A stretch of 57,001 bases of DNA from Oscillospiraceae bacterium (GCA_902785115.1 CACZXQ010000001.1:1-57001), one strand, 5' to 3'. Shown: positions 4,542 to 22,801, counted from the first letter of the stretch. Notes: generated by a model not told the origin, from the sequence alone. Numbers and translations are program-made.

Positions 4542-4638
4542 CTTTTCTACTCCTTTTGTCGGAATTGCTCCACAAAGCATACTTTAAGCTGTATATACTT
4601 CTTTCTGCCTGTATGGTATCACTTGAAGTGTCCGTCAA

Positions 4639-4679
4639 CAATTCCGATTACGGGGAAGAGATCGAGGAAATCGAATTGC
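4639..4679. promoter_or_regulatory. Island dyad site 1 (CAATTCCGATT-N19-AAATCGAATTGC) plus esterase promoter
   Basis: The minus strand reads AATCGGAATTGTTG-N17-TACCAT, with the -10 at 4613-4618 and the -35 at 4636-4641. See finding 1. Confidence 0.6.
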
Positions 4680-4698
4680 AAAAATATATAAAGGTACC

Positions 4699-4727
4699 TT
4701 GACAAATGATTTTGGATGTGATATTCT
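4699..4727 (+). promoter_or_regulatory. Sigma-A type promoter of the MarR gene (TTGACA-N17-TATTCT)
   Basis: -35 at 4699-4704 and -10 at 4722-4727. It is bracketed by the direct repeat TAAAGGTACC at 4689-4698 and 4741-4750. Confidence 0.6.
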
Positions 4728-4776
4728 ATGCCACGATAAATAAAGGTACCGAAACATTTTTTGAAAGGATCAACAT

Positions 4777-5523
4777 ATGTCTGAAACAAATAACAAATGT
4801 CCTGGCTGCGGCCGTCACTGTGATTTGAGTGCTCCTAATTGCCCCCGCGGCGAAGCCTATGCGAGAGGCGAGGCCCCGGAAGCGCAGAGCTTTGAGCACA
4901 CTTCACACAGACGCCCTGAGCACGCGGAAGAAAACGAACATCGCAGCGGTCATCGCCATGATCACAGCGGCGAGAATTCCTTCCCTGGATCCCATCACGG
5001 TCACGAGGGGCATGGCCCCAAGCGGCCGAAACTCAGTCCCGAACAGTACGCTACCCTCAGTACCGATGAAAAACTGGGCATTCAGCTCCGTGAACTCGGA
5101 CACATGGGCCGCTTTCATTTGGAGAGCAAAGGCGGGCGGGGCAGGATCTTACACATTCTCGCCCAGGAGGGCGGCATGACCCAGCGTACTTTGACCGAGA
5201 AGCTGGGTATTCAGCCCGGTTCTGCCAGCGAGGTCATCGGCAAGCTGGAGCGCGCCGGTCTGGTTGAACGCCAGGAGAACGCAGAGGATCGCCGCACATC
5301 GGACATCCGGCTGACGGAGCTTGGCCGGGTCCAAAGCACCGAGGCATCCGAGACCCGACCCGATCCGTTTTCCGCTTTGAGTGAAGAGGAGAAGCTGCAG
5401 CTCCTCACCCTTCTGGAAAAGCTCAGTGCCGACTGGAAGGCGCGTTTCCCGCGTGAGCACCACGGACACGGCGAGGGGAAAGCCTCTCACCACAGCGATC
5501 ATTCTGACAAGACTCGTCAATAA
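4777..5523 (+). CDS. MarR-family transcriptional regulator with an N-terminal Cys4 motif and His-rich extensions
   Basis: The winged-HTH core reads ILHILAQEGGMTQRTLTEKLGIQPGSASEVIGKLERAGLVERQENAEDRR. The N-terminus has CPGCGRHCDLSAPNCPRG followed by a His-rich linker, and the C-terminal tail is HHGHGEGKASHHSDHSD. RBS is GAAAGGA. Confidence 0.8.
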   Translation: MSETNNKCPGCGRHCDLSAPNCPRGEAYARGEAPEAQSFEHTSHRRPEHAEENEHRSGHRHDHSGENSFPGSHHGHEGHGPKRPKLSPEQYATLSTDEKLGIQLRELGHMGRFHLESKGGRGRILHILAQEGGMTQRTLTEKLGIQPGSASEVIGKLERAGLVERQENAEDRRTSDIRLTELGRVQSTEASETRPDPFSALSEEEKLQLLTLLEKLSADWKARFPREHHGHGEGKASHHSDHSDKTRQ

Positions 5524-5574
5524 ATCGAACCGGGAATCTGCTCATTCGGGCGGTTTCCGGTCACTTTTATGATG

Positions 5575-5635
5575 CCGTTTTTAAAGTCCATCGTTGAAAA
5601 GGGAATTGAACCACGCCCTGAATTCGCACTATAAT
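5575..5635 (+). promoter_or_regulatory. Island motif site 5 plus promoter of the FMN-dehydrogenase gene
   Basis: CCGTTTTT (5575-5582), then AAAGGGAATTGAAC (-35 TTGAAC at 5606-5611), N18, then TATAAT (5630-5635). Confidence 0.55.
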
Positions 5636-5666
5636 ACAAGTATCAAGGGATAACGGAGGGATTCTT

Positions 5667-6584
5667 ATGACCCAATTCAAGCCCAATAAGCTCGGACCGG
5701 TTGTCATCAAAGCAGCAAGCTCGAACACGCTCTCAGATACTTACCGCGACAGCATTGCCATTTCTTATCAGTTTATCGGAAGCTCGGTTCCGGAAACCCG
5801 CTTTCAGTGGGAAGATCGTGTCTTTTCCACGCCGATCATGGCCGGCCCGATCGGTGGCCCGGAGCGGAAAGGAGAAGACGGAACCTTGAATTATGCACGG
5901 GCAGTCAGAGACGCGGGAGCAGTTTTCTGGACAGGCTATCATGAAAAGGATATCTGGCCCCGTATCCTGTCAGAGGGGATTCCAGCAGTCCGCGTCATCA
6001 AGCCATTGGCCGATTTGAACCGCCTCTTGGAGGAAGTCCGCTTTGACACCGAGCACGGTGCCATCGGTTATGCTACCGATATTAACCACGCGTTGACCGT
6101 ATATGGTGAACTTGATTCGCAGGAGGAGGGGGACTTCGCTCCGAAAACCGTTGAAGATCTCCGACGCATTAACGACGCCTCGCCGCTGCCTTTCTTCATC
6201 AAGGGGATCCTGAGCGTACACGATGCCCTTCTGGCCAAGGAGGCGGGCGTGGCAGGGATCGTGCTGTCCGGCCACAACAACCGCTTCCCCTGCACGGTTC
6301 CTCCGCTTCGCCTGCTGCCGGAGGTACGCAAAGCTGTCGGATCGGAACTGCGTATCTTTATAGATGGCGGCTTGAACAACGGCTATGATGCCTTCAAAGC
6401 ACTGGCCCTCGGTGCTGACGGCGTCTTGACCGCACGGGGTTTGGTTGCAACCTATCTCAAAGACGGCGCAGAAGGCGCGACCAACAAGCTCCTGGAAATG
6501 ACCGCGGAGCTGAAAGGCGCAATGGCCAATACCGGTTCGACCGATTTGCAGCATATCAATTCCGGCGCCCTTGTGTTTCTGTAA
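5667..6584 (+). CDS. FMN-dependent alpha-hydroxy-acid dehydrogenase/oxidase family protein
   Basis: 305 aa with GIVLSGHNNR and IDGGLNNGYDAFKALALGADGV motifs typical of the FMN_dh TIM barrel. RBS is GGAGGG. Confidence 0.7.
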   Translation: MTQFKPNKLGPVVIKAASSNTLSDTYRDSIAISYQFIGSSVPETRFQWEDRVFSTPIMAGPIGGPERKGEDGTLNYARAVRDAGAVFWTGYHEKDIWPRILSEGIPAVRVIKPLADLNRLLEEVRFDTEHGAIGYATDINHALTVYGELDSQEEGDFAPKTVEDLRRINDASPLPFFIKGILSVHDALLAKEAGVAGIVLSGHNNRFPCTVPPLRLLPEVRKAVGSELRIFIDGGLNNGYDAFKALALGADGVLTARGLVATYLKDGAEGATNKLLEMTAELKGAMANTGSTDLQHINSGALVFL

Positions 6585-6603
6585 GTGATCATCATAATAG
6601 AAT

Positions 6604-6635
6604 CGGCTCTTTCCTTAGAAACGAGGACAGAGCCG
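6604..6635. terminator. Bidirectional stem-loop between convergent genes
   Basis: CGGCTCTTTCCT...AGGACAGAGCCG followed by GTTTT. Confidence 0.55.
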
Positions 6636-6643
6636 GTTTTGCA

Positions 6644-8347
6644 TTATAGTTTTGTATCCCAGAAGCCGCAGAAGGGGTCCACCGGGCTGACGCCCTCAAA
6701 GCTCTCTCGTCCGAGAAGTTTGCGGATCACTGCGTCTACCGTATCTTCCTTAAATTTGTAGGCGTTGATAAAGGTCTTGACGCGCGGCACATCGACCAGG
6801 TGATAGGGATTGCCGAAGGAGACGAACACCGTCGGGATCTCACTGAGATAGTTCGGTGCGTCGCGGCCCATGGACGGACCCCAATCCATCCTGCAAACTG
6901 TTTTATTGCTGATGGAGGTCTGATTGGAAACATAGAGGATCCAGTCAAAGCTTTCCTTCACGCTCTCCCATTCCGCGAAAGGCTCGCCTGCTTTGCGCAT
7001 TGTGACAGAAAAACCTTCCTGCTCCAGCTTGTTCTTCATTGTCTCGGCCACCTGCTCGGCACTGCTGCCGAAACCTCGGCCTTCCGCATAGGCGAACAAG
7101 CAGACGCGCTTATGCATATCCGGTGAGAGCGGCAACAGCTTGTCACGATCCTTAACCAAGGTCACCGAGGCGCGGGCGCAGGCTGCGGATAGCTCTTGCC
7201 CTTCCTTCCGTCCAAGTAGAGAGAGGCTCTCATCCAACGGAAGCTGCAGGGTTTTATTCTCCCGCTTTTCCGGGAGGCCAAGAGCAGCCTTGACAGCCAG
7301 TACGCGCAGTACCGCTTCATCCAGCCGTTCTATGGTCAGAAGCCCATCGTGCAGGGCGGTTCTCATGTAGCGGATGTCCTCGTCCATGTTTTCGGTAAAG
7401 AGGATCATGTCACAGCCAGCCATGATCGCCGCAGGCAGCGCCTTCCACCGAGGCAGCAGTTGATCAAAGGCCGTCATGGTGGTCGAGTCGGTGGAGATCA
7501 TACCGTTGAACCCCAGATGTTCGCGCAGAAGGCCAGTCACCAGTTCCTTCGAGGTGCTGGCCGGAAGCATATCTTCATCTTTCAGGGCGGGGTTGATGGC
7601 CCTGGCCAAGGCCGGCTGGAGCATGTGCCCCACCATGGCCGTGAGTACGCCTGCGTCGATACAGCGGCGATAGACCATGCCGAAGCTCTGATTCCATTCC
7701 TCGCAGGAAAGGCTGTTCACGCTGGGGGAAAAATGCTGATCCCGCTCATCCACGCCATCTCCCGGAAAATGCTTCATGGTAGCAGCCATGCCATATGGCT
7801 GCATTTGTCGGATAAACGCCTCGCCAAACGCGGCGACCTGTTTGCTTTTCTCCCCGAACACGCGGGTCGCGATCACGGGATTTCGCCAGTTCATGCCGAT
7901 GTCCACCACCGGCGCAAAGGCCCAGTTCATGCCGACCGCCATGCCCTCGCGCGCTGTGATCTCCCCCATTTTCCCCGCGAGGGAGTCGTCACCGGTTGCG
8001 CCAAGCTCCAGATTGTTGGCGATGTTATGCCCGCCGACAGCGTCCGCGCCTTCTTCAAGATTGCCGGCGATCAGGAGCGGAATCTTTGCCTTTTTCTGGA
8101 TCTCCGCGATCATCGCGTGATTCTTCTCCGCTGCGGAGGGGAGGCACATCACAGCGCCCATCCGGTACCGCTCCACAACAGTCTCCAGACACTCCGTGTC
8201 TCCTGCCCGAATCTCCGCGCAGAAGATCTGACCGATTTTATCCGTGTCATCCATGGCGTTCAGGGTGTTTTCCACCCAATGGATCTGTTCATCGCTCAAA
8301 AAAAAGGGCCTGCTTTTTAAAATCTCATGATGCGTCAAGCCTGTCAC
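6644..8347 (-). CDS. Glycoside hydrolase family 3 protein (beta-glucosidase / beta-N-acetylhexosaminidase-like)
   Basis: 567 aa with KIGQIF, NWAFAPVVDI and KHFPGDGVDERDQH motifs. It is a paralog of ORF 24053-25729. The start is a GTG and is uncertain. Confidence 0.85.
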   Translation of the reverse strand: MTGLTHHEILKSRPFFLSDEQIHWVENTLNAMDDTDKIGQIFCAEIRAGDTECLETVVERYRMGAVMCLPSAAEKNHAMIAEIQKKAKIPLLIAGNLEEGADAVGGHNIANNLELGATGDDSLAGKMGEITAREGMAVGMNWAFAPVVDIGMNWRNPVIATRVFGEKSKQVAAFGEAFIRQMQPYGMAATMKHFPGDGVDERDQHFSPSVNSLSCEEWNQSFGMVYRRCIDAGVLTAMVGHMLQPALARAINPALKDEDMLPASTSKELVTGLLREHLGFNGMISTDSTTMTAFDQLLPRWKALPAAIMAGCDMILFTENMDEDIRYMRTALHDGLLTIERLDEAVLRVLAVKAALGLPEKRENKTLQLPLDESLSLLGRKEGQELSAACARASVTLVKDRDKLLPLSPDMHKRVCLFAYAEGRGFGSSAEQVAETMKNKLEQEGFSVTMRKAGEPFAEWESVKESFDWILYVSNQTSISNKTVCRMDWGPSMGRDAPNYLSEIPTVFVSFGNPYHLVDVPRVKTFINAYKFKEDTVDAVIRKLLGRESFEGVSPVDPFCGFWDTKL

Positions 8348-8362
8348 TCGCTTTCTGTATCG

Positions 8363-8803
8363 TCACGCGATTCCGGAGAGAGCCTCCGTGATGGCGTTAT
8401 AATCCTCGGTTGTTTCCTTTTGATTTGAATGATTATAGATATAGGTATCGTTTTCTGTCCGGATCAGAAGAAACGGCGGTTTTTGCGTATATACGCTGAG
8501 CATTGCTTCCCCGTATTCCTCGATGCTGCAACGGCCATAGCTGAAGTTCCTGTCGCTGCTGCCGTCGAGCGAAATCCACTCACCCAGGCTCTCGATGAGC
8601 CTGACTTCCCGGACTTCCTCGAGCGGGATGAATACGGACTCATACCGGTCAACAGCAAGACCGATCTGGGTGTCGTCCACCTCCGCCGTAACGGTGTGTC
8701 CGCCGCTGGCAAACATTTGCCAGAGCGTATAAAACACAACGACCAGAAGCAGGAGCAGATAGCTTAGCTTTCTGCTGTTTTTTTCTTTCGCTTCCTCGTT
8801 CAT
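8363..8803 (-). CDS. Hypothetical membrane-anchored protein (one N-terminal TM helix)
   Basis: 146-aa ORF whose start overlaps the upstream stop (ATGA). I recognise no family with confidence. Confidence 0.6.
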   Translation of the reverse strand: MNEEAKEKNSRKLSYLLLLLVVVFYTLWQMFASGGHTVTAEVDDTQIGLAVDRYESVFIPLEEVREVRLIESLGEWISLDGSSDRNFSYGRCSIEEYGEAMLSVYTQKPPFLLIRTENDTYIYNHSNQKETTEDYNAITEALSGIA

Positions 8804-9465
8804 TGCAGTTCAAAGCCTCCTTCCGGCGCCTGATTGTTGTTTTCTCTCTCCCGGTAAGGGACTGTGCGTTCTTTCAGGAAGATCCCCAAGACAAGAGATG
8901 CAGAGAAAAGCAGGAGCAGGGCGTTGACAAGCGTGGCCGTGCTCCCGGCGTCGATCCATGTAGCGAGCAGAGTCATCAACGCTGTAGCCGCCATCAAAGA
9001 GCCGCCGTACAGACTGAGCCTGCGAAGGCGCTTCGCGCTGGATTTATACTCATAGATCGTCATGAAGGGCTTTCCCCATGTATACGAAATCAGGGCAAAC
9101 AGCATGAGAAGCAGGAATATCACAGAGAGCAGTCCCGGCGCGGCCACGTAAGGGCGGGTGTTGCTGACGATCGGAAGCACCAGACGCCAGAAATAGAGCG
9201 CCGTGCCTGCCAGATACAGCAGCCAGTACAGGGCTTTCAGGCGCAGCTGCTCCTTTTCGGGCATATCCCGCTGGATCCATGGGGCTGTGTAAACCCGCAC
9301 GATACGGGCCTTTCCGTTTTCGGTCTCTACTCTGGCCTCGGTATAGCCCTCAAAAAAGTCATGGTATCGGCTGCTGTGGCAAAAGCCGGTCTCCAGCTGG
9401 GACGAGTCATCCGCCCGTCCCCTGGATCGCACCTGATAAATATCTGTGATGTCCTTTTTTCTCAT
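8800..9465 (-). CDS. Hypothetical integral membrane protein
   Basis: ORF with 4 predicted hydrophobic helices. The start at 9465 (MRKKDITDIY) was chosen to avoid overlap with the upstream MBL gene. Confidence 0.6.
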   Translation of the reverse strand: MRKKDITDIYQVRSRGRADDSSQLETGFCHSSRYHDFFEGYTEARVETENGKARIVRVYTAPWIQRDMPEKEQLRLKALYWLLYLAGTALYFWRLVLPIVSNTRPYVAAPGLLSVIFLLLMLFALISYTWGKPFMTIYEYKSSAKRLRRLSLYGGSLMAATALMTLLATWIDAGSTATLVNALLLLFSASLVLGIFLKERTVPYRERENNNQAPEGGFELQ

Positions 9466-9482
9466 GCCGATTGCCCTCGTGT

Positions 9483-10388
9483 TCAATGCTGATGCAGCTT
9501 TGCGCAGTCAAAAATGACCAGCCGGCCAAACTTCCGCGTATGCATCATGATTTCATTGGGATCGTGCAGATGGATTTTCATGTCGCAGGGTCGAACCTTA
9601 AACCGATTATATACTGGTCTTCCGTCCAGGTATTCCTGCTCGGGCGGATGGTCGACAAATCCCATGCCCTCCTCGACCTCACCACCAGCTAAAATATACT
9701 CCAGCGTCTGGATATATTCAACAACCAGTTCCGGGCCGCAGGAGCCTCCCGGGCCGGGCCAGATCACATCAAACTCCGGGATGCGCGTCTCGAGACGCTT
9801 GAACTGCTGCAGCACATTCTCCACGCTGGTATTGATGCGTTTGAGAGGTGCCGCAAGCTCATCTCCCGAAAAGAGGATGCGCTCCCGGCTGTCCAGCAGC
9901 AGGATACTGCCGACTGCGTGATCCGGCATCTCAATGACCTCCAGCGTCCGTCCGCCCAGGTCGATGATGTCGCCGTCCTTGACGATCTCACGGGGATAAT
10001 CCCGCGGAAAGTCGATTCCCTCAAAGCTTGTAAAGGGGATAGTTGCCAACTCGCTGGTCGCCGCTGTCATGTAAGCCTCTTCGAAGTAGGCATTATTTGC
10101 GGTATGGTCAAAATGGTCGTGGGTGCTTACAATGCAGCGGACCGGCTTGTCTGTCAGCGTCTGGCAGTAGGCGCGGAGGTTGCCCGCGCCATAGCCGGAA
10201 TCAATGGCGATGGCTTCCTTGTCGCCCGCCACCAGATAGTGAGAATCCCCGTCGCTTCGGATTCGCCATGTATTGGGAGCGATAAGACTGGACTCATAGT
10301 ACGGCTCGTCCATAGGCAGGAGTTTCCCATCCTCACCACGGATCCACACGTCATGCTTGCAGGAAAAATCAATTCGTTTCACGCTCAT
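9483..10388 (-). CDS. MBL-fold metallo-hydrolase
   Basis: 301 aa with an STHDHFDH (HxHxDH) motif. RBS is GAGGCGG. Confidence 0.8.
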   Translation of the reverse strand: MSVKRIDFSCKHDVWIRGEDGKLLPMDEPYYESSLIAPNTWRIRSDGDSHYLVAGDKEAIAIDSGYGAGNLRAYCQTLTDKPVRCIVSTHDHFDHTANNAYFEEAYMTAATSELATIPFTSFEGIDFPRDYPREIVKDGDIIDLGGRTLEVIEMPDHAVGSILLLDSRERILFSGDELAAPLKRINTSVENVLQQFKRLETRIPEFDVIWPGPGGSCGPELVVEYIQTLEYILAGGEVEEGMGFVDHPPEQEYLDGRPVYNRFKVRPCDMKIHLHDPNEIMMHTRKFGRLVIFDCAKLHQH

Positions 10389-10401
10389 GGCTTACACCGC
10401 C

Positions 10402-11349
10402 TCAGTTGATCTCGTTGACACGGCAGCAGGAGACAAAGTGGCCATCCTTGGCCTCAACAAGCTGCTGCGGCTGGCGGCAGGCCTCGGTGGCATAGGGGCA
10501 GCGGGCCGCAAAGCGGCAGCCGGGCGCGGGGTTGATGGCCGAAGTGATTTCGCCCTTGAGCTGGATGCGCTGCATGGGATGCATAATGTCGGTGCTGGGG
10601 ATAGCGGAGAGCAGCGCCTTGGTGTAGGGGTGCAGGGGCTGATCGAACAGCTCCTTGGCCGGGCAGGTCTCCACCAACTGACCCAGATACATGACGCAGA
10701 TATCATCGGAAATATGCCGAACGACAGAGAGGTCATGGGTAACGAACATATAGGTAAGCTGGTATTTTTCCTGCAGATCCATCAGAAGGTTCAGAACCTG
10801 TGCCTGAATGGACACGTCCAGTGCGGAGACCGGCTCGTCACACATGATGAACTGCGGGTTGAGTGCCAGGGCGCGGGCGATACCCACACGCTGGCGGCGT
10901 CCGCCGTCCATCTCATGGGGGAAGGCCAGGCGAAGACGTTCTTCCACGCCGACCAGATCCATCATTGCCTCGGTGCGCTCCTCGATCTCTTTCTTGGAGA
11001 AACGGTGCGCCTGCTGCAGAGGCTCCATGATGGTGGCCTCCACGGTCATGCGGGGGTTCAGAGAGGAATAGGGATCCTGAAAAACGATGGACATTTTCTC
11101 GCGCAGCTCACGCAGCTTCTTGCCCTTGGCGAAGGTGATGTCCTCACCGTCAAGGCGAACCACGCCGCTGGTGGCATCATGAAGGCGGATGATGGTTCTG
11201 CCCAGCGTGGACTTGCCGCAGCCGGACTCACCGACGACGCCCATCGTATGGCCCTTTTCGATTTTGAAGGTGATATCGTCAACTGCGTGGTTCACACCGG
11301 CAGCGACATTAAAGTATTTCTTCAGATGTTCAACTTCGATCAGCGCCAT
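10402..11349 (-). CDS. oppF: Oligopeptide/dipeptide-type ABC transporter ATP-binding protein (OppF-like)
   Basis: Walker A GESGCGKST and the LSGG-like signature FPHEMDGGRRQR. The C-terminal oligopeptide-type extension carries Cys residues. Start trimmed to MALIEVEHLKKYF. Confidence 0.9.
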   Translation of the reverse strand: MALIEVEHLKKYFNVAAGVNHAVDDITFKIEKGHTMGVVGESGCGKSTLGRTIIRLHDATSGVVRLDGEDITFAKGKKLRELREKMSIVFQDPYSSLNPRMTVEATIMEPLQQAHRFSKKEIEERTEAMMDLVGVEERLRLAFPHEMDGGRRQRVGIARALALNPQFIMCDEPVSALDVSIQAQVLNLLMDLQEKYQLTYMFVTHDLSVVRHISDDICVMYLGQLVETCPAKELFDQPLHPYTKALLSAIPSTDIMHPMQRIQLKGEITSAINPAPGCRFAARCPYATEACRQPQQLVEAKDGHFVSCCRVNEIN

Positions 11350-11350
11350 C

Positions 11351-14263: not shown

Positions 14264-15949
14264 TCAGTTGCTGAAGCAGCAGGCGCCGGGAACAATGTAA
14301 CCCTTGTCGGTCTTGAAGACGCGGGTCATGTTATCGGGGTAAATCAGGTTGTTGTTGCTCATGCACATTGCCTTGGCATAGGCGTTGTCATCCACATACT
14401 GCAGGAAGGACGCCAGATTTTCGTCGGTGTGGGTGTCGAGCGTCATGCAGGTGTGGAGCAGATCCTGGAAGTACTGGTCGTTGATGAAGTTTTCGGTCAT
14501 ACCGTTGCTGCGGCCGTCGGCATCGAGCAGGTGAGACCAGAAGTTGACCACATAGTCGTCTGCGGCCATGAACTGATAGAAAATATCCCACTGAGTCGGA
14601 TCGGACTTCATGGTGTTGCAGGTGCCGCCGTCCATGACGTTCAGTTTGACATTGATACCGTAGGCGGAAAGCAGACCCTGGATGACCTCGGCATACTCGC
14701 CGCAGAAGGTGGCGGTCAGGAGCTGCAGCTCTTCACCGTTGTAGTTGGCTTCCTTCAGGAGGGCAGCGATCTCAGCCTCGTCCGCGGGCTTGTACAGACT
14801 GTAAGCATACTCCCAGTCGGGATCGTAGTCGGCATAGAAGTTGTTGCCGAGAGTCTTGCAGCCGACCTGACCGTTGCCGACGAAAGCGGCAAGAGCGTCG
14901 TTATCGATCGCCATCAAAATCGCCTTGCGCAGGGCGACGTTGGAGCAGGGGCTTGCAGGGTCGCAGTTGCAGTAGGCATAAACCATCATGTTGTTCTGCG
15001 TGGAGTAGACATTGAAGTTGTATCCATCCGCAGTCAGCTGAGCCATGTTGTCCTCGCCGAATTTCTCAGCCAGGTCAATCTTGCCGGTCTCAAGGCCAAT
15101 GATCTTCTGTGTATTCTCACCAATGACAGACAGCGTGATGGTCTTGACATTGGCCTGCTGAAGCTGGGCGCGAAGCTCATCGTTGGTCTGCCAGTAATCA
15201 TCGCGCTTGGTTACGGTCAGCTCGGTGCTGGCGATAAAGTTGGTGACCACGTAGGGGCCGGTGCCGCAGGCATCGTTGGCCAGGCCACTGCGGCTCTCCT
15301 TATAGGCCTCTTCCGAGAAGATAAAGGTGCGGCAGATGATGTTCTGCAGCTCGCCCATACGGTTGAGCTCACGCTCACAGTGGAGAACGATAGTGGTGTC
15401 GTCAATGACTTCCTCGCTGAGGAAGGAGCCCCAGCCAGACTCAAAGCCACCATCGCGGGCCATGTCGAAGCTGAACTTTACGTCGTCCGCGGTAATTTTG
15501 TGGCCGGCAGAGTCGGTGATGTAGTCATAGATGTAGATGGTGTAGTCGCTGCTGCCCTCTTCATGGTCCATACCAGGCAGGTAGCTGCCGCGGGTGGCGT
15601 CAGCCAGAACCGCATAATACTCGCCGTTGGCATCCACACCGTAGAGCATCTCGTAGACCTCATAGGCGATGCCAGGGGTCAGGGTACGCACATCCCAGGG
15701 GACCAGAGCGGTGATATCGGTGTCCTGGATGTAGGTCAGGTGGTCGATCTCGACGCTGTTGTCGTAATCGGTGCCGACGAGGCTTTCGTCATTGTTTGCA
15801 GCCAGAGGATTCTCAATTCCGTTTTCTCCCTGAGACTGCTCCTGAGCAGCGGGCTCCGTGGAGCTAGCTGTACTGCCTCCATTGCTGCCGCACGCCGCCA
15901 GGCCAAGGACCATGACTAGCGCGAGCAAGAACGCAAGTGCCTTCTTCAT
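14264..15949 (-). CDS. ABC transporter substrate-binding lipoprotein, family 5 (peptide/oligosaccharide type)
   Basis: 561 aa with a signal peptide and lipobox LGLAACGS. It has family-5 SBP size and position at the head of the opp-type operon. Confidence 0.85.
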   Translation of the reverse strand: MKKALAFLLALVMVLGLAACGSNGGSTASSTEPAAQEQSQGENGIENPLAANNDESLVGTDYDNSVEIDHLTYIQDTDITALVPWDVRTLTPGIAYEVYEMLYGVDANGEYYAVLADATRGSYLPGMDHEEGSSDYTIYIYDYITDSAGHKITADDVKFSFDMARDGGFESGWGSFLSEEVIDDTTIVLHCERELNRMGELQNIICRTFIFSEEAYKESRSGLANDACGTGPYVVTNFIASTELTVTKRDDYWQTNDELRAQLQQANVKTITLSVIGENTQKIIGLETGKIDLAEKFGEDNMAQLTADGYNFNVYSTQNNMMVYAYCNCDPASPCSNVALRKAILMAIDNDALAAFVGNGQVGCKTLGNNFYADYDPDWEYAYSLYKPADEAEIAALLKEANYNGEELQLLTATFCGEYAEVIQGLLSAYGINVKLNVMDGGTCNTMKSDPTQWDIFYQFMAADDYVVNFWSHLLDADGRSNGMTENFINDQYFQDLLHTCMTLDTHTDENLASFLQYVDDNAYAKAMCMSNNNLIYPDNMTRVFKTDKGYIVPGACCFSN

Positions 15950-16036
15950 TTGTTGTTCTCCTTTTCGTTTTATATTTTTCTCTGCGCTGTGCGGAGTAGG
16001 ATCATGAGTTTATGGTAGCAACCAGATTTATTTTTC

Positions 16037-16077
16037 GCAATTCCGATTAAACCCCGGAAACGCAAAATTGGAATTAC
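16037..16077. promoter_or_regulatory. Island dyad site 2 plus promoter of the SBP/opp operon
   Basis: GCAATTCCGATT-N17-AATTGGAATTAC. The minus strand reads AATCGGAATTGCGA-N17-TACCAT, with the -35 at 16035-16040 and the -10 at 16012-16017. Confidence 0.6.
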
Positions 16078-16103: not shown

Positions 16104-17423
16104 TCAAGCGTATTTTTCCTTTGCCTTACGCAGGCTGCTGAGCGCATCCTTGGCGAAGCGCTCGGCGGTGCCCTTGGCATAGCGGCTCTTTCTGGACTGG
16201 AAGCTGATGCGGTCATAGAACAGCTCTTCCGGCAGATAGCCGCCGCCTTTTGTGGTAAACTCGAGAATCAGCGTATGCGCGAAAGGCGATTCGGACTTGA
16301 TCCTTTCCGCCGTCTCATAGCAGAGCTCAACGCCGCAGGCCAATACAGCGATCTCGCCCAGCTGCAGTACTGCGATTTCCGCTTCCTGCTCGCCGTCCTC
16401 CAGGTATTCGCACTCCCGCGTCGGCTCGCCGCCGCCAAACCCGGTCGAGGCCCGCTGTCCCGGATAGTGGAAGCAATAATAGTCCAGGTGGGGATCCAGC
16501 TCGGCTGCCGTTTCCTGGATGCTGTCCGAGGCTTTTACCACCTGCTCACCGAGGCGGGTCGCCAGCACGTCCATCAGCGCGAAGCCGGCCATGCCCAGGT
16601 CTTCCACGACCTGTTCGCCCTCTCTGGTCAGATAATCCTTTCTGGCCCGCAGAGCCTGCCACTGATCGCCGGTAAAACCGGTGAGATAAGCGGATACCGC
16701 CGAACCGCCGTAGGCCATATCGACAAAACGCTCGGAGGCTCCGGCCAGGTCGCCGGAGATCAGGCGGCCTCCGTTTACCTCGGAAAACTCCATGCAGCCC
16801 GGGGCCACATTGCAGTTATAGAGGATCGCAATGGGATCGCCGCTTGTGCTGTTAAAGCGCAAAACCGGCACGCGCTGATCGGTAGGGCCGTCCTGGTTGA
16901 CGCCCTGCCACCAGCCGTTTCGCGTCTCCACCACGCGGTTGACGGTCACGGCCGCATGGGCTTCCGCATAGCCCAAGGAAGCAGGCTGCAGGTTTTCTTT
17001 TGCCAGTCGGCAGGCCGCTTTGACTGCGTCCGCATAGGCCTGAACCATCAGGTTCTCCCGCTGCATATAGAGCATGGCCTCGCCTTCCCCGACTGCCATC
17101 CGCTTGTGCATGGGATCTTCCATCCATTCTTTTACGGACTGCCAGCGGCGGATGTGAGGGGTGGCCAGCGTGTGGGTTGCATGCAGAAGAATCTGCTGTT
17201 TGGGAAGACCCAATTCGTTGGCGGCAACATCCAACAGTTCATCCTTGCAGTCCATAATGACGATGCCGACGGAGAGAAGAGCGAAGCTGTCTTTTCCACG
17301 CAGAACGATCGCCTGCACCAGCGGCAGATCGTGTATCCCGGTGTAATTCTCTCCCAAGGTGGGCAACATCGCCTCGGTAAAGGCAATCTCGGCTCGCCCC
17401 GCGCCGCAAAAAAGTTGACTCAT
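16104..17423 (-). CDS. Uncharacterised 439-aa cytoplasmic protein (possibly neutral/alkaline-ceramidase-like fold; weak)
   Basis: Clean ORF with AGGAGAA RBS. The family assignment rests only on a by-eye resemblance. Confidence 0.6.
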   Translation of the reverse strand: MSQLFCGAGRAEIAFTEAMLPTLGENYTGIHDLPLVQAIVLRGKDSFALLSVGIVIMDCKDELLDVAANELGLPKQQILLHATHTLATPHIRRWQSVKEWMEDPMHKRMAVGEGEAMLYMQRENLMVQAYADAVKAACRLAKENLQPASLGYAEAHAAVTVNRVVETRNGWWQGVNQDGPTDQRVPVLRFNSTSGDPIAILYNCNVAPGCMEFSEVNGGRLISGDLAGASERFVDMAYGGSAVSAYLTGFTGDQWQALRARKDYLTREGEQVVEDLGMAGFALMDVLATRLGEQVVKASDSIQETAAELDPHLDYYCFHYPGQRASTGFGGGEPTRECEYLEDGEQEAEIAVLQLGEIAVLACGVELCYETAERIKSESPFAHTLILEFTTKGGGYLPEELFYDRISFQSRKSRYAKGTAERFAKDALSSLRKAKEKYA

Positions 17424-17495
17424 TTTCAGTTCTCCTATCGTGTAATAAAGGAAATTTACGGCTTAACCTGGAAAAAGGTCAAAAAATGTGCTATT

Positions 17496-18047
17496 TTATT
17501 CTTTAGAATGCGGCATAAGCTTGCTGAGTGCGTCCCAGACCCACATGACCGCAAGGCAGATCACCGCGGTTGCGACGGTGCTGAGGAAGAACATCAGACC
17601 GTAGCCATAGCAACTTTTACCCATGTTTGCATACATGGCGCCACGGAAGGTAAAAACAGTCAGTGCGAGAGAAACAGCGCCGAGCTTGCATTGAACGTAC
17701 ATTTTCCCGGTGAGTTTTTCGGCTACCAGCATTCCAACGGTGCCGAGCCCCAACAGCAGGCAGACCAGCAGATCGCTGCCGAACAGCTTGTCAAGGAACA
17801 CGACAAGGAACCCGAAAGCTACGCCGATCCCGATGATCAGGCAGCGGGCAAGTCCCGCTTCCCAGGTTTTTTTCCAGCTGTGCTCCGTAATAAAAACAGC
17901 CGCGATGGTCATAACGCAGATATTCAGATACTTGTCTGTACCCGGGATCGCCCTGAGCAGCAGCATATAAACCAGGGCAGTCACCGCCGCGTTTACACCT
18001 GCTCGAACATCAATCTCTCTGAGGCCCTTTTCCGGTTTTGGTGGCAT
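17496..18047 (-). CDS. Hypothetical integral membrane protein (183 aa, about 5 TM helices)
   Basis: GGAGGAG RBS. It is transcribed divergently from the LysR gene. Confidence 0.65.
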   Translation of the reverse strand: MPPKPEKGLREIDVRAGVNAAVTALVYMLLLRAIPGTDKYLNICVMTIAAVFITEHSWKKTWEAGLARCLIIGIGVAFGFLVVFLDKLFGSDLLVCLLLGLGTVGMLVAEKLTGKMYVQCKLGAVSLALTVFTFRGAMYANMGKSCYGYGLMFFLSTVATAVICLAVMWVWDALSKLMPHSKE

Positions 18048-18105
18048 AATTAACTCCTCCTCTGTTAATTGGTGTCTCCTTTATAAAGCACAGATCCGCC
18101 TTTCA

Positions 18106-18144
18106 GCAATTCCGTTTCCGAGTATGCTTTTTGAAAAACGAATC
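18106..18144. promoter_or_regulatory. Island dyad site 3 in the LysR / membrane-protein divergent region
   Basis: GCAATTCCGTTT-N18-AAACGAATC. The minus strand reads AAACGGAATTGCTG-N17-TTATAA, with the -35 at 18104-18109 and the -10 at 18081-18086. Confidence 0.5.
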
Positions 18145-18184
18145 ATTTAACCCAAAAATCAAAAGGAAAACAGGAGGCTCCCCC

Positions 18185-19060
18185 ATGGAACTAGAACATG
18201 TGATCGAATTTGTAGCGCTTGCGGATACGTTGAACTATCACAAAGCGGCGGACAAGCTCTTTATCTCACAATCTTCGCTCTCCAAACACATCAAAACGCT
18301 CGAGCGGGATCTTGGCGTCCCTCTGTTTGATCGGAACGTCGGCGGCGTGATGGCGACGGAGTTTGGGAAACTCTTCTATCCCTATGCCAAAAAGATTGCG
18401 CAGCTGTACTCGGATTATCAGACCGACGCGGAACTGAAGCTGCATAGTCTCAGCGGCAGTGTAAGTCTTGGAACGGAATATGATATCAGCCGACTGCTCT
18501 GCGCATTTAAAACAGAGAACCCGGATTTCGTCGTCAAGGTGTTTGATAACCCCGCTTCCAAACTGGTCAAGCGCGGACTGCGGCTCGGAGAATTTGAGCT
18601 TGCGGTCATGCATGAGGACACAGAAACCAACAACGAATTCAACAGTATCCCTTTCTGCACGGAGGAATTGGTTCTGGCTGTATCTTCCCGGGACTCGCTG
18701 GCAAGACAGGAGGGGCCGATCACGTTGGCTTCTCTGAAAGAAAAGCATTTTATTCTTCCGTCTGAGCAGGGAATGCTCTACCAGATCATCAAGCGCTGCT
18801 GCCGTGAGCGCGGTCTGAACCCGGTTTCGGTCTGTTCCGGTCTCTCGGTAGGCCGCATTCTGGATTTGGTTTCGGCCGGCGTCGGTATTGCCCTCGTACC
18901 CAAATTGGATGCCCAACTGCGAGACACACCCAATGTGACTCTGTTGGAACTGAATCAGGGATATCCGATCAAGCTCAACCTCTATTTCCGAAAGGATGTG
19001 GAATTCTCTCCCGGCGCCATGCGATTTATCAGCTTCATGCAGAAATATCGGCAGCAATAA
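18185..19060 (+). CDS. LysR-family transcriptional regulator
   Basis: MELEHVIEFVALADTLNYHKAADKLFISQSSLSKHIKTLE HTH after AGGAGG, followed by a substrate-binding domain. Start trimmed from the TTG in the ORF track. Confidence 0.9.
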   Translation: MELEHVIEFVALADTLNYHKAADKLFISQSSLSKHIKTLERDLGVPLFDRNVGGVMATEFGKLFYPYAKKIAQLYSDYQTDAELKLHSLSGSVSLGTEYDISRLLCAFKTENPDFVVKVFDNPASKLVKRGLRLGEFELAVMHEDTETNNEFNSIPFCTEELVLAVSSRDSLARQEGPITLASLKEKHFILPSEQGMLYQIIKRCCRERGLNPVSVCSGLSVGRILDLVSAGVGIALVPKLDAQLRDTPNVTLLELNQGYPIKLNLYFRKDVEFSPGAMRFISFMQKYRQQ

Positions 19061-19082
19061 TAAAGAGAATCCTTGCAAAAAA

Positions 19083-19119
19083 GAATCGCCTGAACTGACT
19101 GTTCGGGCGGTTCTTTTTT
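19083..19119. terminator. Bidirectional terminator between the LysR gene and pgmB
   Basis: GAATCGCCTGAAC...GTTCGGGCGGTTC followed by TTTTTT. Confidence 0.6.
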
Positions 19120-19120
19120 A

Positions 19121-19762
19121 TTAGTTGAGGACGTTAGCAAGATCGGCAAAGGAAAGCAGGTCGTAGTCTTCCAGTCCGCAGCCCCTGGCATCTCCAAAGA
19201 GTGCGAAAGCCGTCATGCCTGCCGCCTTGGCCGCTTGGATCCCTGCTTTTGCGTCTTCGATGACGATGCAGTCAGCCGGATCCTTGTTTATTTTTTCAGC
19301 AGCCTTCAAAAACACTTCCGGATCCGGCTTCGAGCGCGTGATATCCGTTCCGTCCGCAATGGCGTCAAAGAATCCGGCAAGGCCGATCCGCTCCAGAATG
19401 AACTTGGTGTTTTTGCTGGAGGAGCCGATGGCCATGGTGTAACCTCTGGACTTCAGCGTGTGCAGGGTCTCTCTCACCTCATCGGAAAGATCCGCAGGAC
19501 TCATGTTCTTCAGAAGCTCCCGATAGGTTTCGTTCTTCTCGGTAGTAAAGGCTTCTTTTTCCTCCTGCGTATAGGCACGATCCGCCCGCTCCAGGATGAT
19601 TTCCAGGCTCGCCATGCGGCTGACCCCGCGGAGTCTGTCATTGATCTTCTCGTCAAAGTAGATGCCGAGCCGGTCAGCCAACTGCTTCCAGGCCTGATAG
19701 TGAAAACGGTCGGTAAAGCAGATGACGCCGTCCAGGTCAAAGATGATCGCTTTTGTCTGCAT
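19121..19762 (-). CDS. pgmB: Beta-phosphoglucomutase (HAD superfamily)
   Basis: Nucleophile motif IIFDLDGVI, then LRGVSRMASLE, GSSSKN and IEDAKAGIQAAKAAGM. Confidence 0.8.
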   Translation of the reverse strand: MQTKAIIFDLDGVICFTDRFHYQAWKQLADRLGIYFDEKINDRLRGVSRMASLEIILERADRAYTQEEKEAFTTEKNETYRELLKNMSPADLSDEVRETLHTLKSRGYTMAIGSSSKNTKFILERIGLAGFFDAIADGTDITRSKPDPEVFLKAAEKINKDPADCIVIEDAKAGIQAAKAAGMTAFALFGDARGCGLEDYDLLSFADLANVLN

Positions 19763-19767
19763 CTCTG

Positions 19768-20721
19768 TCAGACCTCATACATGGCGTCGGCTTCCTCCGG
19801 TGTCAGCTCCATGTTGCCGCCGATCATGCTCTCTTCCAGCTGCGAAAGCTTCGTCGCGCCGATGATGGCCACGCCGGGCAGCTTGTTGTTGGCAATATAG
19901 GCCACGACCGGAGCTGCAATGGGGACATTGCGCTCATGCGCTACCTTCAGCGCACGCTCGTAACGCACGAGATTCTCTTCGCTGCCGTAGAACATTTTCA
20001 GATGGGGAGGAGGATTGTCAAAGCCGAGAGACTGGAGCTTGGCACAGAAGCCGGATGCCTGGGAGCTGAACGCGAAGACGGGCATGTTCTGCTCCAGATA
20101 CCAGTTGTAGGACTCATCGGTCATGACGACTGCGCCATGCTCTTTGAAGTATTCTTCCTTGGTGGACGAAAAGCTCCACTGAATCTGGCTGGCCAGGAAG
20201 CCCTGCTGGCCGGAACGTTTGGCGTAGTCATTTGCTGCCTGGATGCGGTCGATGTGCCAATTGGAGCAACCGATCAGGCGTGCCTTGCCGGCTTTGATCA
20301 CGCGGTTGATGTTGTCAATGATCTGCTCGACCGGGACAGACTCGTTGTCCTTGTGGATCCAATAAATGTCAATGCAGTCGGTATCCAAGGTCTTCAGGCT
20401 GGCGTTGATGTCGCTGTCCAGATCTTCCCAGCTGAGACGGCTGGGGCCGTTATCGCCGCCGATGGGGTGGCAGCCTTTGGTGGAGATGACGATCTGACTG
20501 CGCTTGCCGCAGTTTCTCAGGTATTCACCGACCATCTCTTCGCAGCGTCCATCACCGTAGGCGCGGGCGGTATCCAGGCAGTTGCCGCCCAGATCCAGGT
20601 AGCGGTCGAAGATGCGCCAGACCTCTTCCTTCTCCAGCCTCATCATACCCATGGCCGAACCCATGGCGATACGAGAGGTGCGAATCGTCTCCTGATATCC
20701 CTGTAAATCCAGATACTTCAT
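19768..20721 (-). CDS. Aldo/keto reductase
   Basis: 317 aa with LDTARAYGDG and IGCSNW-type motifs. RBS is AAGGAGAA. Confidence 0.85.
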   Translation of the reverse strand: MKYLDLQGYQETIRTSRIAMGSAMGMMRLEKEEVWRIFDRYLDLGGNCLDTARAYGDGRCEEMVGEYLRNCGKRSQIVISTKGCHPIGGDNGPSRLSWEDLDSDINASLKTLDTDCIDIYWIHKDNESVPVEQIIDNINRVIKAGKARLIGCSNWHIDRIQAANDYAKRSGQQGFLASQIQWSFSSTKEEYFKEHGAVVMTDESYNWYLEQNMPVFAFSSQASGFCAKLQSLGFDNPPPHLKMFYGSEENLVRYERALKVAHERNVPIAAPVVAYIANNKLPGVAIIGATKLSQLEESMIGGNMELTPEEADAMYEV

Positions 20722-20737
20722 GTGTGCTTCTCCTTTT

Positions 20738-21583
20738 TTATTTATTGTTTTCGGGTACGTTCAAAATCGCCGGGTTATAACTGATCCAGACATTGCCGTG
20801 GCTATGCTTCTTCTGGTTGGGAATGGGAGACATCGGCATGCAGACATCCTCATCGTTCTCTGTCTGGCGCAGAGAAAGCTCTCTTGCGCAGGACATCTCG
20901 TTGAGGATGATTTCCCGACTCAGCGGTTTCTTCCAGTGGCCGCCAAAGAGCGTTGTATCTGCCGGAACCTTTTCCGTAAACGCCTGGATCGCGTCGGCCA
21001 TCTCGGCAAAGGCCTCAAGCGACTTGATGGAAGACGCCGGGATTCGCTCGCCAAAGGCGTCTCCGACAAAACAGTACCCGTCCGCGCTGTTGAAAACAGC
21101 GACAGAACCGAGCGAATGACCGGGGAGCTTCAGAATCTCCAGCGTGATGCCTCCGAGATCGAAGGTATCACCGTTCTGCACGTTTTTATACTGGAAGCCG
21201 GAGCAATCGAGACAATGCGCTTCCGCATAGGCCAGCAGTTCGGGGTCTTTGTGGCTGAACATGCCTGCATCCCGCATCCTGCTCTCCTTTGAGAGACGCG
21301 GGATCTGGTTTTCGTCCCGCTCGCTCATGTAGACCTCATCGAACAGCACAGAGCCGCCGATGTGATCCGGATGACCGTGCGTGAGGATATTGACGATCGG
21401 TTTATCGGTCAGGCCGCTCACCAGCTCGCGAAGCTCGGTTCCGAATAAGCCCATGCCGCTGTCGATCAGCGCAGCCTTCTCTTCCCCGATGACAAGACCG
21501 AGGACAAGCGCGGAATCCTCCGCATAGTGCTCCCGAATCAGCCAGAGGCTGTCGGAGACCTTTTCCGTCTGATAAATATTCAT
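20738..21583 (-). CDS. MBL-fold metallo-hydrolase
   Basis: Start trimmed to MNIYQTEK (ATG at 21583 after AAAGGAGAA). Contains the LTHGHPDHIGG motif. Confidence 0.8.
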   Translation of the reverse strand: MNIYQTEKVSDSLWLIREHYAEDSALVLGLVIGEEKAALIDSGMGLFGTELRELVSGLTDKPIVNILTHGHPDHIGGSVLFDEVYMSERDENQIPRLSKESRMRDAGMFSHKDPELLAYAEAHCLDCSGFQYKNVQNGDTFDLGGITLEILKLPGHSLGSVAVFNSADGYCFVGDAFGERIPASSIKSLEAFAEMADAIQAFTEKVPADTTLFGGHWKKPLSREIILNEMSCARELSLRQTENDEDVCMPMSPIPNQKKHSHGNVWISYNPAILNVPENNK

Positions 21584-21597
21584 GTTCTTCTCCTTTT

Positions 21598-22701
21598 TTA
21601 CAGGAACGCGATGGCCGCCGGGTGCGTGATTTTCTCCGACACAGCGGCTTTTTCCAAGGTTCCGTTCTCCAGGATGCGGTAGCTGACCACATTTTCCGTA
21701 TCGTTGCATGCGAGCAGCAGGTAGTTTCCATCCGGCGAGAAAGCAGCGCCGCGCACCGCTTTGCTCTCGGTTTCCAGGCTCTGGACACACCGGAGGCTTC
21801 CGGTTTCCGGGTCAATGTCCATCACATACAAACGTCCAAGCCCACGCAGCACATCGTAGAGCTGCCGTCCGTCCGCGTTGATCAGGATCTCGGACTGGTT
21901 ATCGCGCGGCCCCAGTTCCGCATCTCCCACGGGAAGCTGTACATCCTCCTCCCAAACGCAGCTCTCTTCCGACCAGCGGAATTTGCTGACGACGCCATTG
22001 CGCTCATAGTTGAGATACAGATAGGGGAGCGTCGGATGGAAGATCAAATGCCGCGGACCGGAGCCAGCTTTGCACGGTGTTTCAAAAAGAGGCACCAGCT
22101 TTTCATTTTCGTAATCAATCTTGAAAAAACCGATCCGATCCGCCCCGAGATTGCCGTATGCAAAGCAACTTCCATCCGGCGCGAGGAAAGCTTTGTGGAT
22201 AAAGGACGGTTTTGGCGCAGTCGCATTGGAGTGATGGAGCACATCGCAGAGCTTGCCAGGGGTTCCATCTTCATTCATGCGGTACAGATTTGTGATAGTA
22301 TCGGGGAATACCTTTTCAGAATGCCAGGCTCCGTCCTCGCCCTGCGTCACTTTGATGGTCGGCATGCCGATGGCAAAATGTGTGACAACCATGTATTTGC
22401 CGGTCTTATCGAAGGTAACGCCGGACGTGTTGGACGCCATCGTAAACGTGTGGCTTTTCTCCGTCAGCTCTCCGCTGACCGGGTCAGACTCAAGGCACAG
22501 GACGCCGCCCCCACCGTCGGGACAGGTGATGATCTGCTCGTCCGTGGAATACAGCCGACCGTCTTTCACTGTCAGGCTTCCGGCATTGGTGCGCGGGGAA
22601 AGCAGCTTCCGCGGCGTGACACATCCGTTTTCGGCATCATACTCGCAAACGGTGATCCCCTCCGCGCCGGCATAGTTAAAGCTTCCTACATAGGCAAACA
22701 T
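21598..22701 (-). CDS. Lactonase, 7-bladed beta-propeller family (6-phosphogluconolactonase-like)
   Basis: 367 aa with repeated beta-propeller blade pattern, MFAYVGSFN N-terminus and GSGPRHLIFHP. Confidence 0.7.
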   Translation of the reverse strand: MFAYVGSFNYAGAEGITVCEYDAENGCVTPRKLLSPRTNAGSLTVKDGRLYSTDEQIITCPDGGGGVLCLESDPVSGELTEKSHTFTMASNTSGVTFDKTGKYMVVTHFAIGMPTIKVTQGEDGAWHSEKVFPDTITNLYRMNEDGTPGKLCDVLHHSNATAPKPSFIHKAFLAPDGSCFAYGNLGADRIGFFKIDYENEKLVPLFETPCKAGSGPRHLIFHPTLPYLYLNYERNGVVSKFRWSEESCVWEEDVQLPVGDAELGPRDNQSEILINADGRQLYDVLRGLGRLYVMDIDPETGSLRCVQSLETESKAVRGAAFSPDGNYLLLACNDTENVVSYRILENGTLEKAAVSEKITHPAAIAFL

Positions 22702-22759
22702 AGTTTCCCGCCTTTCTTCTTTTCTCTGGCTCGATTATAGGGGGAATTCTTCTATTTCC

Positions 22760-22801
22760 GCAATTCCGTTTTCCCCCGTCTCAAGCCTCAAATCGAATTG
22801 C
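22760..22801. promoter_or_regulatory. Island dyad site 4 (best dyad) between divergent operons
   Basis: GCAATTCCGTTT-N18-AAATCGAATTGC. The minus strand reads AAACGGAATTGCGG-N18-TATAAT, with the -35 at 22758-22763 and the -10 at 22734-22739. Confidence 0.65.

Follow-up and report, generated by a model that had tools for sequence, protein, structure and literature searches.

The 57,001-nucleotide (nt) stretch of Oscillospiraceae bacterium DNA analyzed here (GCA_902785115.1 CACZXQ010000001.1:1-57001; hereafter, the window) has in its left half what looks, from its gene content, like an island for the use of hydrolysable tannins or phenolic esters and glycosides. Promoter regions across this island share a wide-spaced inverted repeat, or dyad, whose promoter-proximal arm, AAWSGGAATTG, ends in a TTG that coincides with the TTG of a -35 element. 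The locus thereby raises the question of what kind of element this dyad is, which protein reads it, and whether its occupancy turns the island on or off. The answer put forward herein is that the dyad may well be the operator used by a transcription factor specific to the island, most likely the transcriptional regulator of the LysR type (LTTR) encoded at 18185-19060, which would act on sigma-A promoters in a class II-like manner.

A dyad confined to the catabolic island

The arm sequence AAWSGGAATTG has six exact matches in the window against 0.13 expected, a count that none of 100 shuffles reached. A dyad scan, which combined a position weight matrix built from the window's 11-nt arms with a required inverted arm 17 or 18 nt upstream, called exactly five dyads (S1 to S5; Table 1) in the 57 kb, compared with 0.25 calls per shuffled window. 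All five lie inside the 3.4-27 kb island, and none was called in the right-hand 34 kb. These are precisely the sites listed in an initial annotation of the window, which had also seen no full motif at housekeeping promoters of the right half and whose quoted sequences were all found where it had placed them. Some of its details needed correction. Specifically, it had allowed inter-arm gaps of 17-19 nt; gaps of 17 and 18 nt stand and 19 nt does not, as the inverted-arm score forms a single sharp peak at a spacer of 17 or 18 nt in 10 of 10 promoters and stays at about -18 bits elsewhere. Half-sites are present at all five sites, as claimed, but the distal arms of S2 (TGATGCCGTTT) and S4 (TGATTCGTTTT) are weak. 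S5, described as a near-perfect dyad with a minus-strand promoter, is indeed such a dyad, but it serves two back-to-back promoters, one arm each, and the five promoter regions hold six dyad-fused promoters. Finally, two isolated half-sites, at 4557-4568 and 15814-15824, exist, but at chance level, and are not considered part of the feature: CGGAATTG occurs seven times against 3.1 expected, with four of the seven in dyads and the other three at chance level, and the half-site at 15814 is missing from the orthologous substrate-binding-protein (SBP) gene.

Across 28 arms from 14 dyads, the information resides in 11 positions per arm (A-A-W-y-s-G-A-A-T-T-G) and is about zero in the spacer and flanks. 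The distance from arm center to arm center is 28-29 bp, and that between the GAATT cores is 32-33 bp; with the centers separated by nearly three helical turns, both arms point to roughly the same side of the helix. In unidirectional promoters, conservation is better in the promoter-proximal arm, and a strong arm pairs with a weak one, including at a related locus (L078) that has a perfect distal arm and a weak proximal arm. Such pairing would be expected if a dimer or a higher oligomer bound cooperatively.

The dyad is also held in a fixed register with the promoter. In all 17 promoters compared, related loci included, a -10-like hexamer stands 17-18 nt past the TTG that ends the proximal arm, the arm overlapping the -35 element by 3 nt. 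Under a strict -10 criterion (at least four of six matches, with A2 and T6), 16 of the 17 promoters score as positive, versus 4.1% of all TTG triplets in the window, which upholds the earlier proposal that the motif's TTG is the -35 TTG. With sequences such as TATAAT, TACCAT, TACAAT, and TATCAT, the -10 elements belong to the sigma-A type. The -35 hexamers, apart from their TTG, are poor (TTGTTG, TTGAAC, TTGCGA, TTGCTG, and TTGCGG), and a standard sigma-70 scan consequently calls only one of the six dyad-fused promoters (S2). A TGn extended -10 is carried by three promoters, namely, the window's S1 and S3 and the S3 of its counterpart L071 (introduced below). The geometry originally suggested, that of a -35-overlapping activator or an LTTR, survived these computational tests.

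Conservation in orthologous and related loci

Another sample provided a syntenic contig (L071; also L074/L075) whose proteins are about 77-78% identical to those of the window; S3, S4, and S5 are retained there, with their arms and -10 regions kept and divergence in the DNA between them. S5 is identical in both arms, in the left TATAAT, and in a right GAAATGCwTCATA block, and only a few of the 18 inter-arm positions match; the right promoter reads CATATT in L071 where the window has CATAGT. S3 keeps the block AAWCGGAATTGCG as well as TGCTACCATA and has an identical -10, and the S4 promoter reads TATCAT in L071 where the window has TATAAA. A candidate sigma-H-like element or third half-site, GAATTC located 12 nt after GGAATT in the -35/-10 spacer at S2 and S5, was dropped, as it is not conserved in L071.

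Beyond the immediate lineage, a strict palindrome scan of 185,579 genomes (GTDB), a collection without the source species, returned 66 matches. Most were chance matches in AT-rich Bacteroidota or belonged to unrelated repeat or hairpin families (in a Desulfovibrionaceae metagenome-assembled genome [MAG], a Chlamydiae MAG, and Treponema), and only L037, L038, and L020/L061 looked related to the window motif. In L038, from a Lachnospiraceae MAG, the dyad (3365-3404) stands directly before an operon of FUSC_2, BD-FAE esterase, and SBP_bac_5 genes, with an LTTR gene 1.5 kb upstream of the dyad. In L037, also from a Lachnospiraceae MAG, it stands (2034-2073) before an operon encoding an SDR-family protein, an unknown protein, and an SBP_bac_5 protein. 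The two share the design CAATTCGGTTT-N18-AAWTCGAATTG followed by 17 nt to the -10, and the motif class hence seems to reach beyond the source lineage. A literature search with the arm sequences returned primers and noise and no described operator, and the motif appears to be previously undescribed.

The same scan yielded several observations of a different kind. In two Clostridiales MAGs, a similar dyad, CAATTCCRWTT...AAAATGGAATTG with 17 nt to a TATAAT (L020, 1136-1175; L061, 5391-5430), lies upstream of an operon encoding an AraC-type response regulator and a histidine kinase, with its left arm set within a tighter ATTCC-N5-GGAAT palindrome. Further, multicopy palindromic repeats unrelated to the dyad were seen, such as CAATTCCATTTCAAACAAACCGTAATTCCAAATGGAATTG, with at least five copies in one MAG. 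Such repeat loci come from one Desulfovibrionaceae MAG (L011, L017, L047, L051, and L058), one Chlamydiae MAG (L029, L044, L057, and L067), and Bacteroidota (L006, L016, L039, and L059).

Linkage of the dyad to the LysR-type regulator

Close relatives of the LysR-type regulator encoded at 18185-19060 are rare, and the dyad accompanies them into gene neighborhoods that differ. Specifically, P0046 (77% identity; L071/L074) is divergent from a dyad-bearing gene for a FUSC_2-like membrane protein, in a context like that of the window; P0047 (66%; L078) is divergent from the gene for a 439-amino-acid (aa) enzyme, with LpdD-chaperone and FMN_dh genes close by; P0048 (54%; L079) is divergent from a 213-aa gene with a GH3 gene; and P0050 (37% overall; L094) is divergent from an MFS transporter gene. 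Each time, the dyad occupies the intergenic region on the divergent side of the LysR gene, its proximal arm 17-18 nt from a -10; S4 and all four relatives thus have in common an LTTR gene next to a dyad-bearing target promoter that points the other way. P0050, the most distant of them, has the N-terminal signature NYHRAADKLFISQS in common with the clade and a similar wing.

Control loci totaling about 200 kb, chosen around other LTTR genes (L084-L090 and L096), MarR genes (L080-L083), and esterase homologs (L072, L073, and L091-L093), contained no intergenic dyad; the sole call was weak and fell inside a coding region of L093. The lack of an intergenic dyad at the esterase homologs L091 (52%), L072 (50%), L092 (43%), and L093 (40% identity) indicates that the motif does not simply track the enzyme genes. 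A further LTTR, P0077 (33% identity), which has a similar N-terminus, was rejected as a dyad-linked relative because it has no dyad and sits in an unrelated gene neighborhood. A metagenome scan with the alignment of the LysR clade returned distant LTTRs only, and no orthologs.

One of the control loci, L093 (767-13100), holds a comparable island (SBP_bac_5/opp, esterase, MBL, and BD-FAE genes) with an OmpR-type response regulator at its flank and no intergenic dyad, which fits the view that each lineage's island uses its local regulator.

The MarR-family gene of the window (4777-5523) has two of the five dyads as its neighbors, S1 on one side and S2 on the other, and had also been named as a candidate. 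Its promoter (TTGACA at 4699-4704, 17 nt, TATTCT), however, carries an element of its own: AAAGGTACC occurs there twice, at 4690-4698 over the -35 and at 4742-4750 at about +10, and the copy at 4690, AAAGGTACC(TT), belongs to the palindrome AAAGGTACCTT. The same pair (L080, 9909 and 9963) is kept at a 69% identical MarR ortholog beside a trp operon in another MAG, and no dyad was found in the MarR-ortholog loci, L080 included. The pair is probably the autoregulatory operator of this MarR, and a protein with its own conserved operator is a poor candidate for the dyad. Further, its architecture is widespread in Clostridia (456 homologs at E<=1e-10), whereas the dyad is rare. That this MarR binds the dyad is, in our judgment, barely credible. 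The protein has, in addition, an N-terminal extension of about 110 aa (4777-5110) with a CxxC...C...C motif and a His-rich tract, which may sense metal or the redox state.

Thus, among the three candidate regulators initially proposed, the LysR-type regulator gains strong co-occurrence support, with dyads in the divergent promoters of its relatives and different targets behind them; the MarR loses ground to its own conserved palindrome; and a factor encoded elsewhere is possible. The island's LTTR is probably the dyad-binding protein. The accompanying proposal, that one regulator co-controls the island operons, is likewise strengthened, given that every non-regulator transcription unit in 3.4-27.1 kb has a dyad in front of it and that the arms and -10 elements are conserved.

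Proposed mechanism and alternatives

From these patterns, we infer that a protein binds the dyad, which protein this is, that it activates rather than represses, and what induces it. Each 11-nt arm would be read by one winged-helix domain, through major-groove contacts to the GAATT core and, next to these, minor-groove contacts to the AAW tract. Placed at about -33 to -72, the regulator would act like a class II activator and assist the binding of the sigma-A RNA polymerase, and the promoters activated would be those without a usable -35 beyond the TTG. Six transcription units would be driven by dyads in this way, with the one symmetric site of S5 serving two back-to-back promoters. At S4, which lies between the gene for the FUSC_2-like membrane protein and the divergent LysR gene, the site would overlap the predicted lysR promoter and bring about autorepression. 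The spacer of that candidate promoter, found by consensus scan only, contains the distal arm of S4, and dyad occupancy would thus be expected to repress lysR; at L078, the dyad abuts the lysR ribosome-binding site. The inducer would be a phenolic product such as gallate; that it is gallate or a related phenolic is a guess, made by analogy with GalR and from the tannase and LpdD context.

Several features of the locus weigh against this LTTR-centered reading. There is no T-N11-A 15-bp local dyad near -65 and no partner half-site about 11 bp away, and an OxyR-like four-element model with inner LTTR half-sites was rejected, as the spacer is without information. The usual LTTR pattern, a strong recognition binding site (RBS) and a weak activation binding site (ABS) (PMC9942251), is reversed here, with the proximal arm the stronger in unidirectional promoters. 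The recognition helix, ISQSSLSKHIK, is common to many paralogs without a dyad (the paralog locus L096 has none), and specificity would therefore need another source, the unusual wing ERNxSGV being one possibility. In the clade of the window's regulator, this wing reads ERN(V/S)(S/G)GV (DRSTKGV in P0050), versus DRTTRKV in the broader Firmicute subfamily, and the lack of the usual basic residues might relate to the noncanonical site. Further, S1 and S2 are 13 kb from lysR, and no LTTR gene was found near the dyad-like sites of L037 and L020/L061 in the 6-8 kb examined. A bolder form of the LTTR reading can be offered only tentatively: a small Clostridial LTTR clade with an atypical wing (ERNxSGV versus DRTTRKV) would have abandoned T-N11-A and would instead read a 40-bp palindrome whose only elements are two 11-nt arms at a distance of three helical turns, activate two back-to-back promoters together from a single symmetric site as at S5, and govern tannin or polyphenol-ester islands in rumen and gut Oscillospiraceae and Lachnospiraceae.

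Some of the same features could be accommodated by keeping the operator and the -35-overlapping activation and assigning them to a protein encoded outside the window, for example, an AraC/XylS dimer of the RhaS/RhaR type, with the LTTR as a mere member of the regulon. The geometry of the dyad is in fact closest to that of RhaS, with inverted half-sites 14-16 bp apart, a -35 overlap, and a dominant proximal half-site (PMC11983282), two arms alone suit a dimer better than an LTTR tetramer, and the L020/L061 dyads precede an AraC-type response-regulator/kinase operon; these points, and the missing LTTR gene near the L037 dyad, count against the LTTR. However, RhaS half-sites are bipartite and 17-18 bp long, whereas the dyad arms comprise 11 contiguous nt, no AraC-family domain (HTH_18/HTH_AraC) was found in the 50 open reading frames of the window that were scanned, and the dyad follows the LTTR clade across four rearranged gene contexts, which would be a coincidence if the factor were unlinked. 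We regard such an external factor as a minority prospect, albeit the most serious of the alternatives. A repressor operator is a less probable one still, and on the whole unlikely; here, the LTTR or another protein would block the -35 of promoters that are otherwise constitutive by virtue of a good or extended -10. The near-consensus -10 elements (TATAAT at S2 and S5) and the overlap of operator and promoter are in keeping with this, and an activator could be dispensable at the promoters with TGn extensions (S1, S3, and the S3 of L071), which leaves room for repression. Yet the 17-18 nt register is invariant in 17 promoters from several families, as expected for an activator that touches RNA polymerase and as a repressor would not need; the -35 hexamers are uniformly poor beyond TTG; and the core promoter does not extend as far as the distal arm, which is at about -67. 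The invariance of the arm-to--10 register thus argues for activation over simple occlusion, and activation is the likelier mode by a clear measure.

The conserved block of 8-11 nt takes in the -35 position, and GGAAT resembles some -35 elements of the ECF (extracytoplasmic-function sigma factor) type, so that the proximal arm might be imagined as the extended -35 of a dedicated alternative sigma factor, with the distal arms as divergent copies or fortuitous. This is very unlikely, given -10 elements (TATAAT, TACCAT, and TACAAT) that are sigma-A-like rather than of the ECF or sporulation type, an inverted partner at fixed spacing even where there is no divergent gene or -10 (S1, S2, and S3), a pairing of strong and weak arms (L078) that points to a dimeric binder, and the failure of the sigma-H-like GAATTC of S2 and S5 to be conserved in L071. 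Least probable of all, to the point of being negligible, is that the element is a repetitive extragenic palindromic (REP)-like or mobile-element repeat, an RNA hairpin, or a product of chance. It is an inverted repeat, and the strict palindrome pattern does also match repeat families in other phyla, but each of its five copies in the window precedes a gene and keeps a set register to a -10, with conservation at orthologous positions; RNA folding is unremarkable in four of the five dyads (z of +0.16 to -1.28); no Rfam match falls at the dyads; and five dyads were observed against the 0.25 seen in shuffles. The original view of the element as a transcription factor site and not a scattered repeat is thereby corroborated, its copies being promoter-registered, conserved, and missing from the right-hand 34 kb.

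Likeness to known systems

The arrangement has parallels among regulators of aromatic-compound catabolism. TanR (lp_2942) of Lactiplantibacillus plantarum is said to have been placed in the LysR family by Reveron et al. in 2017. It has been called a putative tannase regulator (PMC8004764), and GalR of the Pseudomonas putida gallate regulon is an LTTR with an RBS at about -65 and an ABS at about -35 in its promoter (PMC9942251). As in GalR-type LTTR promoters, the regulator gene at S4 is divergent from a target promoter, the region predicted to be occupied extends from about -33 to -72 with its proximal part at the -35 like an ABS, and the site is overlapped by the predicted lysR promoter; as with GalR and TanR, the regulon concerns the catabolism of tannin, gallate, or aromatic compounds. 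Unlike LTTR promoters, the dyad lacks T-N11-A, holds its information only in two inverted 11-nt arms 28-29 bp apart, and usually has the stronger arm on the proximal side, and the wing of the window's clade is, unlike that of related LTTRs, without the R-K residues.

RhaS/RhaR, AraC/XylS proteins that act at rhaBAD and rhaSR in Escherichia coli, bind inverted half-sites with 14-16 bp between them (PMC11983282). The dyad resembles their sites in its inverted arms (17-18 nt between them here) and partial -35 overlap; further, at the Rha promoters, which are activator-dependent, the proximal half-site contributes most. It differs in its arms of 11 contiguous nt, in place of bipartite 17-18 bp half-sites, in the failure to find an AraC-family gene in the window, and in phylum and pathway. 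The PurBox pairs of Bacillus subtilis PurR, two inverted boxes of about 14 bp that lie 16-17 bp apart and are bound by one dimer, are likewise wide-spaced dyads of two inverted boxes. PurR, however, is a phosphoribosyltransferase (PRT)-fold repressor of purine genes with the box AWWWCCGAACWWT and no fixed -35 fusion. Class II CRP/FNR promoters share with the island promoters a symmetric site, a proximal half abutting the -35, and a weak -35, but CRP/FNR sites are 22 bp long with half-site centers about 11 bp apart and are centered at -41.5, whereas the dyad is centered at about -52 with its arms 28-29 bp apart.

We see a new operator in a familiar kind of system, an ordinary arrangement in which the operons of a catabolic island share a site and are served by a local regulator; a local regulator with a shared operator is textbook, and no new class of regulation is opened. 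If confirmed, the motif would nonetheless provide a sequence handle for tannin and polyphenol-ester utilization genes in uncultured rumen and gut Clostridia; among these are enzymes without a family assignment that stand behind a dyad, the 439-aa protein and the 395-aa esterase being examples. A candidate inducible pair of regulator and promoter for phenolic sensing in anaerobes would be a further gain, and an LTTR (or an unknown dimer) with a wide palindrome of two arms, able to drive divergent promoters from a single site, would be added to the known mechanisms.

Target genes and other features of the window

Table 1. Dyads, predicted promoters, and genes of the island (positions counted from the first nucleotide of the window).
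Feature	Position	Strand	Sequence or spacing	Remarks
Dyad S1	4639-4649 / 4668-4678		18 nt between arms	Proximal arm 4639-4649 (minus strand AATCGGAATTG) on the esterase side; distal arm 4668-4678 (AAATCGAATTG) facing the MarR gene
Dyad S2	5570-5580 / 5598-5608		17 nt between arms	Weak distal arm 5570-5580 (TGATGCCGTTT); proximal arm 5598-5608 (AAAGGGAATTG)
Dyad S3	16038-16048 / 16066-16076		17 nt between arms	Proximal arm 16038-16048 (minus strand AATCGGAATTG); distal arm 16066-16076 (AATTGGAATTA)
Dyad S4	18107-18117 / 18135-18145		17 nt between arms	Proximal arm 18107-18117 (minus strand AAACGGAATTG); weak distal arm 18135-18145 (AAAACGAATCA)
Dyad S5	22761-22771 / 22790-22800		18 nt between arms	Each arm -35-fused to one of two back-to-back promoters
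Predicted sigma-A promoter, esterase 3429-4541	4613-4641	-	TTGTTG (4641-4636), 17 nt, TGaTACCAT (-10 at 4618-4613)	At S1
Predicted promoter, FMN-dependent dehydrogenase gene 5667-6584	5606-5635	+	TTGAAC, 18 nt, TATAAT	At S2
Predicted promoter, SBP/opp-ABC/MBL/GH3 operon	16012-16040	-	TTGCGA, 17 nt, TGcTACCAT	At S3
Predicted promoter, 17496-18047 (probably also 16104-17423)	18080-18109	-	TTGCTG, 18 nt, TATAAA	At S4
Candidate lysR promoter	18131-18159	+	TTGAAA, 17 nt, AAAAAT	Consensus scan only
Predicted promoter, lactonase/MBL/AKR/HAD operon	22734-22763	-	TTGCGG, 18 nt, TATAAT	At S5
Predicted promoter, esterase/GH3/MATE operon	22798-22826	+	TTGCGG, 17 nt, CATAGT	At S5
Subtype B tannase gene	1655-3052	-		NCBIfam equivalog, 563 bits versus a cut-off of 300
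Alpha/beta-hydrolase esterase gene	3429-4541	-		Target; tannase gene downstream
MarR-family gene	4777-5523	+		Cys/His-rich N-terminus
FMN-dependent dehydrogenase-family gene	5667-6584	+		Target
SBP_bac_5, two opp-type permeases, two ATPases, MBL-fold hydrolase, two small proteins, GH3	15949 down to 6644	-		Target operon
183-aa FUSC_2-like membrane protein (17496-18047) and 439-aa protein without Pfam family	16104-18047	-		Target
LysR-type regulator gene	18185-19060	+		HTH_1 and LysR_substrate domains
Lactonase, MBL-fold hydrolase, aldo/keto reductase (AKR), HAD hydrolase	22701 down to 19121	-		Target operon
395-aa esterase (EstA_Ig_like in homologs), GH3, MATE transporter	22862-27104	+		Target operon

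The 376-bp gap between the tannase gene and the esterase gene upstream of it contains no dyad, and the tannase is thus either cotranscribed from S1 or expressed from a separate, unrecognized promoter. S2 lies just past a terminator-like hairpin (5546-5560) that is itself 3' of the MarR gene. At L078 (187-1780), a gene of the LpdD-chaperone family (a gallate decarboxylase accessory) and an FMN_dh gene resembling that of the window adjoin the 66% identical LysR ortholog; the proximity of these two genes is a hint that the FMN_dh gene of the window (5667-6584) belongs to gallate metabolism. The window corresponds essentially to a single metagenome contig (ENA ERZ27280358 k141_707310, 57,064 bp), and its RNase Y and SpoIIE genes place the source in the Bacillota. 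The G+C content is 50-65% across the window. To the right of the island, on the plus strand at 29715-29864, a cobalamin riboswitch (Rfam RF00174; 31.8 bits, barely over the gathering score) is located upstream of a DUF4430-containing gene cluster.

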